Positions 13,504-17,208 of a stretch of 26,813 nucleotides of DNA are shown piece by piece. Below the pieces are notes generated by a model that was given only the letters and a program-made list of their open reading frames with translations, made no database searches and was not told where the DNA came from. How positions within the stretch are numbered: position 1 is the stretch's first letter; every line of letters begins with the position of its first letter. The position numbers were made by a program, and so were the translations under genes. Origin of the DNA: a virus; UHGV virus genome UHGV-0083306, one strand, 5' to 3'.

Positions 13504-15384
13504 TTAATACTCCGTCACGTTTTCCTGTCGCCACGCCTCGTCATATTCCGATTTCGGCATATTGGCGATGTAGCTATATGGCGATCCTGATTCAAGTTGC
13601 AGGAACTGGTGCGATTGCTCGTCAAGGAACAACGGGACACCACCTTCCCAACCTTCGCCGTTACGTTGCTTTTCAAGCATCAAAACAGATGCCGGAGATG
13701 CCAGTAGCTGTTCGTCCTTCTCTGACATCCTTTCACCACTCTGAACTCTCTGTAACGCTCTCTCGCGAGCCTTGTTACGCCAGATGATAAAAAGGTTGTC
13801 TGTCAGGTCTGTTATCGCTCCAGAGCCTTTTACGTCCATTTTACCGGTTGGTTTTTCTTCGCTGTCTCCTTTTCTGGAGTGAGTAACGAGAATGACGTGG
13901 GAGTTTGTTTTGTTTTTGAAGTCACAAATCGAGTCAACAAATGCTTTCTGCCCGTTATAGTCATCGTCACCTATGCCGCATTTCATCAGGCTGTCGATGA
14001 TGAATAACTGGATGCCGTATCGGCGGCGAGCGTAGTCGAATATTTCGATCAGCCTGTCGGCTTTCGCCGTTCCGGTCAGGCCAAACACCCAGAGTCTTTC
14101 GTCATAAAATTTAAATGCAGAGTCAATTTCCAGCACTGGCGGCATCTTGCAGCACGTTGCCTGACGGGTAAGTCGCTTAAGGAGAATACCAGGCTTCAGC
14201 TCAAGTGACGCGATGCACGTCTTCACACCCTGACGCATTGCCTCAAGTGCCATATGCCCGACAACCTCCGTTTTTCCGTGACCGTTCACACCATTGACCA
14301 GCGTCAACTCTGCCTCACGGAACTGGAATTTATCTGCCAGAGATTCCCACGGTGGATTAAACAGATACTGCTGCTTGCCGTAGAAAGCGTTGATAGTGTC
14401 CTGGTAAAACTCTCGCGCGCTGTAGAGTTCTTCAGGGTCGAAGTAGGATGCCGTGCCGATGTACTGCCAGATTTCATCCTCGGTAACACCGTTCATCAGG
14501 CATTCGTTGATGTCTTTGTACGGCAGAGTAACAAGACGGCAACGATGTTCACCGAGTCGGCTTGCGATTTCCCTTGCGGCTTCACGACCAACATCATCAA
14601 CGTCCATCGAGATGAATATTTCCTCAAACCTGTCGAGGTTGTGATACTCAAACTCAATCCACTGTTGCTTAGCGCCTTTTCCTCCACCAAACGGCACGGA
14701 TAACGCCGAGATGCCGTATTGCGCATAGCTCATACAATCAATTTCGCCTTCGCAAAGCACAACCGCCCTCACGCCAGCGTCCAGAGCCTGCCATCCGAAC
14801 AGACAAGGTTCACAATCACCTTCTGCCATAATGACTTTCTTCCCGTCCGGGCGCTCAGTGCTGATTCGCTTGACCTGCAACAACTCACCATCGCGTTTGT
14901 ACGGAAGCACCAGTGCATCAAGTTCTCGTTCTCCATTCCACACCTTGCCGCTGACAACCTCGTAGCGCTTTACGACTTCTGGCGATATGCCACGCGATTG
15001 CAGGTACTCAAGATGGGATTCTGTTCTGGTAACGTAGCGGGCTATTTTCTTGCGATCAGGTCTGGAGAATTTCTTCTCACGTTTGGCATCGAAATGGTGA
15101 TCGTCATCCTTGATACCGAGAAATGCTTTCGCTTCCTGCATAGCCTGATGCAGGTTAATTCCACGACATTCCATCCACAAATCAAGCATGTCACCGCCGT
15201 CTCCCTCAGCGAAATCAGCCCATTTTTTCTTGCCGCTAAGATTGACCTTAAGGCTGTTTCCCTTGTCACCGTTGACGTTACCGGCAACCCACTCATGCCC
15301 CTCTTTCTTGCCGTTTGGCAACAGGTGCGGAGCCACCCTGTCAACCTGCGCCCAAAGCAGGTCGCTGAGTTCACTTGGCCTCAT
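13504..15384 (-). CDS. bifunctional DNA primase / replicative helicase
   Basis: 626-aa ORF: TOPRIM-like motif (VVLCEGEIDCMSYAQYG), then Walker A (NGVNGHGKT) and Walker B-like (LFIIDSLMKCG) of a DnaB/RecA-fold helicase. Confidence 0.8.
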   Translation of the reverse strand: MRPSELSDLLWAQVDRVAPHLLPNGKKEGHEWVAGNVNGDKGNSLKVNLSGKKKWADFAEGDGGDMLDLWMECRGINLHQAMQEAKAFLGIKDDDHHFDAKREKKFSRPDRKKIARYVTRTESHLEYLQSRGISPEVVKRYEVVSGKVWNGERELDALVLPYKRDGELLQVKRISTERPDGKKVIMAEGDCEPCLFGWQALDAGVRAVVLCEGEIDCMSYAQYGISALSVPFGGGKGAKQQWIEFEYHNLDRFEEIFISMDVDDVGREAAREIASRLGEHRCRLVTLPYKDINECLMNGVTEDEIWQYIGTASYFDPEELYSAREFYQDTINAFYGKQQYLFNPPWESLADKFQFREAELTLVNGVNGHGKTEVVGHMALEAMRQGVKTCIASLELKPGILLKRLTRQATCCKMPPVLEIDSAFKFYDERLWVFGLTGTAKADRLIEIFDYARRRYGIQLFIIDSLMKCGIGDDDYNGQKAFVDSICDFKNKTNSHVILVTHSRKGDSEEKPTGKMDVKGSGAITDLTDNLFIIWRNKARERALQRVQSGERMSEKDEQLLASPASVLMLEKQRNGEGWEGGVPLFLDEQSHQFLQLESGSPYSYIANMPKSEYDEAWRQENVTEY

Positions 15385-15491: not shown

Positions 15492-16352
15492 TCACCTGTC
15501 GAAAAACACGTAGCCAGTTTTCGATACGGTGATTGCGGATGATGGTTTGGATTGTGGTTGAATAGTTTCTGGCTTCTCGTCGTTCCAGCGTTGACCGTTC
15601 AGGTAGCTCGATGGTAACAACCTGTCGAATCCGAACTGCTTACCATTCCTGCATGCGATGTCTTCTGCCAGCATCGTGGCAAACTCGCTTGCCGTACCCC
15701 TGGTAGTTTTACGCCATTCCCTGAACTGTGTTCTGAATGCCGAAGCTGCGTTTTTCTTCCCGGCTTTCCGCATGCCTGCACACCAGAATATTTCCTCGAA
15801 TGCCTTGTCGGTTTCTTCGTGACGGTCATGTGATTTTTCACACTCCGTCCGAACACTTTCGGACATAGTGTTTTTATTATTTCTTTTTTCTTTTGTAATA
15901 GTTTCTTTTGTGTGTCCCTGTTTTGGTGACAGCGCTGTCACCGTTTTGGTGACACTTTTTGTCACCAATGCAGTGACATTATCACCAGAGTAGTGACACC
16001 CTTCGATTTGCCATTCTTCGATGTTCTTGTTAGGACCGATTTGCTGGCCTTCGCGAAGGATAACCTTCATCGCGATAAGCTCATTCTTGGCCTTGTTTAC
16101 CTTCTGTCTTGGCAGCCTGGTAATTTGAGCTAACTGACTATCAGAGATGCGATCCATCTTTTTACCGTAGCCGTATGTTTTACGGCATATGGCGTGGGCA
16201 ACCTTGCTCTGATTTTTCGTTAAATCTGCGCCGATAAGCTCTTCATACAGGGCATTTGCAAGACGGGTATAACCATCTTCAACTTCTGCCACACGACGCT
16301 CCACAGGCCGTTGTGAAGGCCTTAAATGTGTTACGGTTGCAAGATTACTCAT
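15492..16352 (-). CDS. replication initiator, lambda O-like
   Basis: 286-aa ORF; N-terminal domain ([56 protein letters not shown]…GPNKNIEEW) resembles lambda O; low-complexity linker encoded by the iteron block. Confidence 0.8.
15868..16001. repeat. candidate replication origin: iterons plus AT-rich tract inside the O-like gene
   Basis: Four GGTGACA/TGTCACC repeat units spaced ~20-24 bp (15921-16001), followed in the O coding direction by an AT-rich tract (15868-15915); same layout as lambda ori. Confidence 0.55.
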
Positions 16353-16491
16353 GACCTTTCTCCTTCTGCATCAGCTTCACTTTTTCCAACTCAGCCCGGA
16401 ATCGACCAGGCTGCTTGAAGCTGGACAGGAAGCGATCACGTAGTATGTGTTTGTGAATTTTGTCCTGGTAAGGACTGAGTGGTTTTGTCAT
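16345..16491 (-). CDS. small basic ORF (48 aa) coupled to O
   Basis: [48 protein letters not shown]; strong SD GAGGAGG; start overlaps the upstream stop (TAATG) and the end overlaps the O start. Below the ORF-track cutoff. Confidence 0.35.
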
Positions 16492-16895
16492 TAAGCCTCC
16501 TCTACTTCGTAATCAGCGAAGTAACCAGTAGACATTTTTAAAAACCTTGATTCGGTGACTGTGTAAGCCTTCCTTCCTTTCCTCTCCTTGCCTTCAGGCT
16601 CTATGAGGTGGCACGAATAAATGATTCTGCGCTGCCAGTTGCCTGGCATTTCCACCACTGCCAGAACCTCAAGAATTCTCTTTCCTTCAGCATCAGCGGT
16701 GTAAAAACACTGATCACCATAACCACAATCGGCTGGCTCATAATTTTTGTGACAACCGCCAATCCAGCGCTCATCGGTATGCACGTTGCCGTCATAAGAC
16801 TGATAATCTGTGCATACGAAGATAAATGGATATACGGTTTCGAACTTGTCACCGGCCTTTATGCCGGTGTTTACTTGCTTGGTTTGTCCTGGCAT
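16491..16895 (-). CDS. hypothetical protein (134 aa) between cII and O
   Basis: Start at MPGQTKQ with SD AGGAG 5 nt upstream; the longer track ORF overlaps cII in another frame. Cys/His-rich (…[18 protein letters not shown]…CHLIEPEG); no family recognised. Confidence 0.5.
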
Positions 16896-16929
16896 AATTA
16901 CTCCTGTTACTTGGCGTAACACAGTGTGC

Positions 16930-17208
16930 TTAAGCGTCCAGACTGCTACCAACAGCTGGGCGTTTTTCTTTTGTGAGAATCGATGCCACCTGCTGAGCAA
17001 GTCTCGCCATCTCATCATCAACAACTCCCCATTCAAGAACAGCCAGAAGCATGGCCATCTTTGGGATAAAGCTGTCTTTCCATCGCGAAATTTGCGATTC
17101 ATTAATCCCTAACGCGTCGGCAACCTTTCGCTGACCACGTACAGCAATTCGATTCAGGATGTTGCTTGTAATTGCATTCGCTTTCTTGCGAGTACTTGTA
17201 AGTTGCAT
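16930..17208 (-). CDS. cII: transcriptional activator CII
   Basis: 92-aa ORF; …VADALGINESQISRWKDSFIPKMAMLLAVLEWGVVDDEMARLAQQVASILTKEKRPA closely matches lambda CII; upstream leader matches the lambda cII leader. Confidence 0.85.
   Translation of the reverse strand: MQLTSTRKKANAITSNILNRIAVRGQRKVADALGINESQISRWKDSFIPKMAMLLAVLEWGVVDDEMARLAQQVASILTKEKRPAVGSSLDA

Follow-up and report, generated by a model that had tools for sequence, protein, structure and literature searches.

Here, we analyzed the 26,813-nucleotide (nt) viral genome UHGV-0083306 (this whole stretch of DNA is referred to as the window) with a focus on two small genes, X (134 codons) and Y (48 codons), that lie between a gene for a cII-family activator and a gene for an O-like replication initiator. 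As judged from alignments and gene neighborhoods, this region is shown to be the known lambdoid variable slot extending from cII/oop to the initiator, and in the window the slot holds two independent in-line cassettes, not a two-gene system. The finding is real but represents largely ordinary phage mosaicism, in which a common DUF2740 gene (Y) is combined with a rare homolog of HK639 gp53 (X). An earlier reading of the sequence (from here on, the original prediction) had proposed that two genes were wedged between cII and O. This is correct for X, which is inserted, but not for Y, which is the usual occupant of the slot. Because each gene occurs independently of the other, X and Y are not a fixed pair; consequently, the idea that they form one unit was dropped.

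On the minus strand, the gene order is cro-like gene, cII, X, Y, O-like initiator, and primase-helicase fusion. X (16491-16895) starts with the ATG at 16893-16895 and ends with the TAA at 16491-16493, and Y (16345-16491) starts with the ATG at 16489-16491. The stop codon of X and the start codon of Y have one base in common (TAATG), and the end of Y overlaps the start of the O-like gene by 8 nt (ATGAGTAA). X, Y, and the O-like gene each have their own Shine-Dalgarno (SD) site, i.e., AGGAG at 16901-16905, which is part of a AGGAGTAATTATG linker and is followed by the ATG of X five bases further on; GAGGAGG at 16496-16502, which lies within the last codons of X and four bases before the start of Y; and AAGGAG at 16360-16365, which lies inside Y. 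The RefSeq annotation contains the identical four coding sequences (cII, X, Y, and the O-like gene). These data agree with the original prediction in that the two genes are distinct, overlap one after the other, and run in the direction of the rightward early operon, with the SD sites of X and Y as proposed and with Y overlapping both of its neighbors. Using a consensus scan, we detected no terminator on the minus strand from cII to O. We also considered whether X could be an N-terminal extension or domain of the O-like protein. This was rejected: X has its own stop codon and is in a different reading frame, Y and two stop codons lie in between, and X gives no Phage_rep_O signal.

The most direct evidence for an insertion comes from phage vB_EcoP-720R6, in which the flanking regions are 99.7% identical to those in the window, but the slot contains cII-Y-O only. 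In the alignment, AACAGGAGTAATTATG is followed by ACAAAAC at the junction in 720R6 and HK620; in the window, X follows AGGAGTAATTATG, and the end of X, GAGGAGGCTTAATG, is followed by ACAAAAC. Alignment with 720R6, HK620, and lambda defines an insert of 404 nt that is bounded by AGGAGTAATTATG and TAATGA. The AGGAGTAATTATG linker serves O in lambda and hkaW/Y in HK620 and 720R6, and it is seen in most slot-type loci. Because the insertion is base-precise in the alignment, X has taken over the ribosome-binding site and start codon of Y and has brought a replacement for both (SD GAGGAGG and TAATG). An SD site and a TAATG or ATGA junction are present at the 3′ end of X homologs whatever gene comes next, and the stop codon of X overlaps the next start codon (TAATG/ATGA) in all slot-type loci except two. 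On its strand, X lacks both a promoter and a terminator specific to it, and the idea that it is a moron for lysogenic conversion was rejected for this reason. The region illustrates how lambdoid phages can gain genes while the operon stays unbroken: the SD-ATG linker is reused, the displaced gene is re-equipped, and an antisense promoter (see below) is kept.

To what extent X and Y are independent can be read from their distribution. Using sensitive blastn, X was found in 2 of 5,426 complete E. coli genomes, and the Y-O junction without X was found in ~400 E. coli genomes. Close homologs of X (51-100% identity) are present in HK639 (gp53, 91%), a Hafnia phage, Klebsiella phages, and 77 IMG/VR contigs, 46 of which have the slot arrangement. 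The arrangement is, thus, conserved in related genomes, i.e., HK639, the Hafnia phage, and the IMG/VR loci. Among representative slot-type loci, the gene upstream of X encodes a Phage_CII protein in 22 of 29 cases and a YdaT-type "CII-like" protein in 3 of 29. Directly downstream of X, most of the 46 slot loci have the initiator gene, 7 have a DUF2740-type open reading frame (ORF) of 48 codons, and 3 have an unrelated 54-codon ORF, i.e., X is mostly found without Y. The initiators that follow X are of several unrelated types (12 of 30 are Phage_rep_O proteins, and the rest belong to other "replication initiation" or DnaD-like PHROGs). In one locus (L007, 4405-5443), an X-Y pair identical to that in the window precedes an unrelated DnaD-like initiator of 299 amino acids (aa), which still starts with MSNLA like the O-like protein of the window. 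The MSNLA start common to the two unrelated initiators suggests that a boundary of recombination lies somewhere in codons 1-5 of the initiator gene. The same locus rules out that Y is a partner of one initiator type, as the same Y precedes two unrelated initiators. Finally, 30 Klebsiella-phage loci have an X without its first 11 codons; here, its neighbors are Ead/Ea22-type genes, and the replication genes lie upstream. By these genomic contexts, X and Y are independent modules, and neither is tied to a particular initiator.

The closest described counterpart of X is HK639 gp53 (HK639_53, YP_004934083), which is 91% identical, has the same length, occupies the same slot after a cII-like gene, and has the same TAATG junction. 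The HK639 locus differs from the window in that the upstream gene encodes a YdaT-type CII-like protein, the downstream initiator is a different one, and no DUF2740 ORF lies in between. HK639 gp53 is annotated merely as hypothetical, and literature searches on HK639, MS 115-1 (the E. coli strain that carries the window as a prophage; see below), and the exact peptides returned no functional data for X. More generally, X resembles the lambdoid early accessory genes (lambda ren, the nin region, and Ead/Ea22 genes) in its patchy spread, its overlapping stop/start joints, and its exchange at gene boundaries, and it would also be like them in being nonessential and cotranscribed with replication genes. 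X has no sequence or structural kinship with these genes.

Y belongs to the DUF2740/P22 Orf48/HK620 HkaW family. It matches Pfam PF10872 (DUF2740) over profile positions 1-43 of 43 (99.4 bits with a cutoff of 27; E 9e-29), and it is 83% identical to P22 Orf48, 98% identical to HK620 HkaW and to the HK022, mEp, and Stx-phage copies, and 58% identical to the most distant copy, which is in an Erwinia phage. In 127 phage records, the gene overlaps the start of the initiator gene every time, and it is a gene of ~48 codons overlapping the initiator in P22, HK620, and the Erwinia phage alike. The slot state with Y is the common one, and lambda is the exception; the cII-oop-"orf"-O organization has been described before (PMC3349717). 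As in P22 and HK620, Y in the window has 48 codons, lies between cII/oop and the O-like gene, and has the same 8-nt ATGAGTAA overlap; it differs in that, because X is inserted ahead of it, it does not directly follow oop/pO, in that its SD site is newly supplied by X, and in one residue by the junction (Q4P). The ratio of nonsynonymous to synonymous substitution rates (dN/dS) of Y is ~0.3 against the P22 and Erwinia homologs, with the length fixed at 48 codons and with purifying selection over the entire length.

As proposed in the original prediction, Y is basic (isoelectric point [pI] 10.1). It likely forms a basic helical-hairpin peptide, the main demonstrable role of which would be to carry the SD site and start codon of the initiator gene. 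Literature searches on hkaW, DUF2740, and orf48 returned no functional data for the family, and the "orf48" of Silas et al. follows a numbering of their own and is unrelated to P22 Orf48 and Y; neither X nor Y is in their supplements. In both phrog_1913 and RefSeq, the DUF2740/Orf48 family, including Y in the window and hkaW of HK620 (L005, 931-1077), is labeled "tail protein." For a 48-aa product of a gene in an early replication operon, this label is not credible and is almost certainly a propagated misannotation. Y can, therefore, be filed as P22 Orf48/DUF2740, and the "tail protein" label in the databases can be flagged as wrong.

The start of X also carries a predicted antisense element of the pO/oop type. 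A promoter scan identified a pO-like, TG-extended promoter, TTTACT-17 nt-CATAAT, on the plus strand at 16870-16898, the −10 element of which is the complement of ATTATG containing the start codon of X, and the −35 element of which is the complement of X codons 7-9. The predicted oop-like RNA of ~65 nt (plus strand, 16906 to ~16970; predicted folding energy of −21.9 kcal/mol) is placed by analogy with lambda oop to start seven bases past the −10 element. It would form a 5′ hairpin (GUUAC-N5-GUAAC) followed by a terminator hairpin and U run (~16932-16973), and it overlaps the last ~13 codons of cII (16930-17208, minus strand), which encodes a 92-aa protein as annotated (Pfam Phage_CII, 5e-43; RefSeq "lambda phage CII family protein"). 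An "M3-like RNA" annotated at this position in HK639 has the same first 21 nt; Rfam contained no family matching the oop-like RNA. The position of the element corresponds to that of oop/pO in lambda, where the gene that follows cII has its start codon at the −10 element and its first codons at the −35 element, and where the terminator lies in the 3′ end of cII (PMC3349717). A promoter and a terminator are annotated at the same position in P22. The window differs from lambda in that the −35 element is hosted by X, not by O or orf48, and in that the RNA has a shorter body and a different 5′ hairpin, resembling the HK639 "M3-like RNA."

A −35 element of the type TTTAC(T/A/C) at 17-18 nt from an A-and-T-anchored −10 element is kept in 26 of 27 distinct slot-type sequences, and GTAAA, the complement of the −35 element, is constant even where the N-terminal peptide of X varies. 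The Klebsiella form of X, which does not lie beside cII, is without the 11 codons in question, and residues 1-9 of X are poorly defined, with low confidence, in the structural model described below. We infer that the antisense promoter carried by its DNA is the main reason for the retention of the floppy N-terminal tail of X. Just upstream of the pO-like −35 element, in X codons 9-16, we also observed a GC-rich hairpin, CACCGGCC-TTTA-TGCCGGTG (16850-16869, plus strand), which is present in the closest relatives and degraded in HK639.

X encodes a real protein that is under constraint. Its dN/dS is 0.05-0.07 (dS 0.86-1.9 and dN 0.04-0.14) against the HK639 and Hafnia-phage homologs, with synonymous sites near saturation; based on these low values, and on the values and fixed length of Y, X and Y are genuine genes and not chance ORFs. 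X matches phrog_30464, a PHROG without an assigned function, over its full length (E 2.7e-95, 1-134 of 134), and 98 of 102 members of the wider family match this PHROG. In a search with a profile of X, 188 clusters (formed at 50% identity) matched with E<=1e-3, of which 41 reached E<=1e-10; they come from enterics, rhizobia, and marine metagenomes, and almost all are single-domain proteins of 115-180 aa. Among the 102 members, P23 and G71 are invariant, and F24, W44, G47, P84, R90, P100, G102, and F118 are conserved in at least 90%. The core motifs YPF, W-x-x-G-C, ADxEG, MP-x-x-x-Q/x-R-x-x-Y, DP-x-G, and a C-terminal Y-x-Y-E are present in X. Because the conserved residues are Pro, Gly, Trp, Phe, and one Arg and include no obvious catalytic set, X looks nonenzymatic.

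Searches against Pfam, NCBIfam, and PADLOC (E<=1) gave no match for X, and Y matched the DUF only, in agreement with the original prediction that neither gene has an assigned function. PADLOC at E<=1, used with no dedicated anti-defense library, contained no defense or anti-defense family matching X or Y. No Pfam domain was detected in the 102 members of the X family. When 10 longer relatives were included, a single fusion was found; this only informative fusion is a 280-aa protein from a prophage-like region on a 748-kb contig (L106, 4001-4843; P0072), in which a DUF3850 (ASCH/PUA-like) domain is joined to an X-family domain. When the X profile was searched against PDB sequences, the only match, to ribosomal protein S17, was at the level of chance (E 0.47).

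An AlphaFold model of X based on 102 sequences has a high predicted confidence (predicted local distance difference test score of 93.9 and predicted template modeling score of 0.80) and contains seven or eight strands and a C-terminal helix. The best partial structural matches are Tudor/SH3-like small beta-barrels, including CarD and the C-terminal domain of PcrA/UvrD, and extend over ~50-65 residues only; as a class, these barrels are protein- or nucleic-acid-binding modules. A Foldseek search of BFVD returned a single unnamed, probable family member. At the level of the model, the fold of X is shown to be without a solved relative, and X is likely a compact, all-beta, noncatalytic binding protein with a Tudor/SH3-like core. 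The family stands out as strongly constrained, widespread, and uncurated, with neither a Pfam model nor a structural relative.

Distant relatives of X were examined in 14 loci, which belong to metagenomes, prophages, and one Rhizobium genome, and are always located in the early region of a temperate-phage-like element; a search with the distant subgroup yielded only 2 viral and 6 metagenome loci. In individual loci, the relative lies between a DNA methyltransferase gene and genes for an initiator and DnaB (L087, 3088-4367) or upstream of a dnaB gene (L090 and L094). An N6/N4 methyltransferase gene directly precedes the relative in L096 (4230-5378) and L097 (3312-4478), and a methyltransferase gene is located within 2 kb in L094, L100, L101, and L102; these adjacency counts stand without a background rate. 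Genes of the Lar type (Lar_restr_allev) are found near the relatives in L094 and L105 and a gene of the Acb2/Tad1 type near that in L098. These contexts support that the distant relatives represent an early accessory gene associated with DNA metabolism, and they would fit help with replication or recombination and the countering of restriction alike. In a metagenomic phage among these loci (L103, 3180-4773), the X-family gene lies directly between genes for ERF (a single-strand annealing protein) and SSB, with stop and start codons overlapping or abutting.

Based on these data, we suggest the following scenario. Early in lytic growth, transcription from pR would run through cII, X, Y, the O-like gene, and the primase-helicase gene. 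Ribosomes ending X would reinitiate on Y, and those ending Y would reinitiate on O; with such a coupled chain, both inserts would leave synthesis of the initiator intact and possibly tuned. The pO-like promoter inside X would make an oop-type RNA against the end of cII. X itself would not depend on the phage initiator; during the early lytic phase, it would bind a broadly conserved component of DNA metabolism, which could be DNA or a host protein of replication or recombination. We regard the last step, that X is a noncatalytic binding protein acting on such a component, as tentative. For the explanation as a whole, which combines a near-certain anatomy with a function for X, we estimate a probability of roughly 45%.

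Several considerations count against this explanation. The functional assignment draws only on the predicted fold class, the conservation pattern, and the gene neighborhood, and the neighborhood signal is weak because early regions of temperate phages hold most nonstructural genes. X is mildly acidic (pI 5.2, with a family median of ~6), which is untypical of a DNA binder, and the methyltransferase and Lar-type neighbors of the distant relatives fit an anti-restriction function at least as well. That the genes are cotranscribed from pR and translationally coupled, and that the antisense promoter is active, is read from sequence. For Y, the purifying selection along its whole length suggests that it is more than a coupling device.

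The strongest competing explanation is that X is an anti-defense protein, most plausibly acting against restriction, which would bind a host nuclease or another immunity protein directly and early in infection. Among the data presented above, the presence of X as an accessory gene of the early operon in a minority of related phages, its shifts from one accessory hot spot to another (cII/O slot, Ead/Ea22 region), and its small size, apparently noncatalytic nature, and mild acidity would all be consistent with this function, as would the methyltransferase genes directly upstream of the relatives in L087, L096, and L097 or within 2 kb in four other loci, and the nearby Lar_restr_allev and Acb2/Tad1-type genes. 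However, methyltransferases are common in early regions anyway, X matches no described family and has no literature, and the combination of a dN/dS of 0.05-0.07 with a range from enteric to marine elements points to a universal target more than to one specific defense system. We, therefore, consider an anti-defense function possible but somewhat doubtful, and nearly as likely as the binding of a DNA-metabolism component. It is conceivable, if still less probable, that the X family (~190 clusters with no solved relative) represents a new early inhibitor or modulator of a universal target in DNA metabolism or restriction, with the DNA for its N-terminal tail kept for the oop −35 element as a small case of dual coding. 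If the target of X were identified, a new way in which phages act on replication, recombination, or restriction in the host could come to light.

Of the functions listed in the original prediction (replication accessory, host takeover, and anti-defense), none was confirmed or set apart from the others by these data. In line with the first of them, X and Y could also be dedicated accessory subunits of the O-like initiator that act at the origin together with O and the primase-helicase. Both genes lie just ahead of the initiator gene and form a translational chain with it, Y overlaps its start in all 127 phage records, and X precedes an initiator gene in the 46 IMG/VR loci and in the distant locus L087. 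This position can equally be explained by recombination at common linker sequences, and the distribution data are difficult to reconcile with dedicated subunits: X and Y are found without each other, initiators of at least three unrelated types follow X, the identical X-Y pair precedes an unrelated initiator in L007, and X is located apart from the replication genes in the 30 Klebsiella-phage loci. Moreover, lambda and many of its relatives replicate on O alone. We consider this explanation unlikely.

Equally unlikely is that the importance of Y, and perhaps that of the N-terminal tail of X, lies mainly in the sequence and not in the protein, i.e., that they serve as translated leaders that set the level of the initiator and as carriers of pO/oop. 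For Y, the C-terminal codons hold the SD site and start codon of the initiator gene, and its ending in HE followed by the stop codon is fixed by the overlap; for X, residues 1-9 are modeled with low confidence and are absent from the Klebsiella form, and the GTAAA DNA is kept while the surrounding peptide changes. Y is nevertheless conserved as a protein throughout (dN/dS of ~0.3 and 58% identity to the Erwinia-phage copy), and the body of X is predicted to be a well-folded, strongly constrained domain, so that X as a whole would be left unexplained.

Least probable by far is that X is a metal-binding, zinc-finger-like regulator or nucleic-acid binder, as could be surmised from the description of the 134-aa protein as Cys/His-rich in the original prediction: X has only five Cys and three His residues, C48 alone is invariant in close homologs, no Cys or His reaches 90% among the 102 family members, no CxxC or HxxH pattern and no zinc-finger Pfam match are present, and the model is of a beta-barrel type and not a knuckle or ribbon, so that the metal-binding reading is unsupported and is already contradicted by the conservation data.

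The human gut isolate E. coli MS 115-1 carries a lambdoid prophage (NZ_CP146665.1, at ~3.24 Mb) that matches the window with 100% identity. Downstream of Y, the O-like initiator gene (15492-16352, minus strand) encodes a protein that matches Pfam Phage_rep_O (1.1e-37) and a PHROG annotated as "replication initiation O-like." Inside this gene, we identified a probable origin at 15868-15998, comprising an A/T-rich stretch at 15868-15912 and, beside it, four iterons of ~19 nt (TGTCACC-N5-GGTGACA) at 15913-15998. Families of repeats, both direct and inverted (D1, D2, I1, I2, and I4), map to this region. By analogy with the origins inside O in HK620, inside gene 18 in P22, and in lambda, the iterons and the A/T-rich stretch are probably the phage origin. 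The next gene (13504-15384, minus strand) encodes a 626-aa primase-helicase fusion (Pfam Toprim_2, AAA_25, and DnaB_C; phrog_239 "DNA primase/helicase," 2e-171). In the replication module of the window, the O-like initiator is, thus, combined with a Toprim-DnaB-type primase-helicase and not with a lambda P-type loader; in other carriers of X, the initiator is paired with P-like loaders or DnaB-type helicases. A frameshifted pseudogene (L001, 3598-3869) is annotated by RefSeq in the leftward early region of the prophage.

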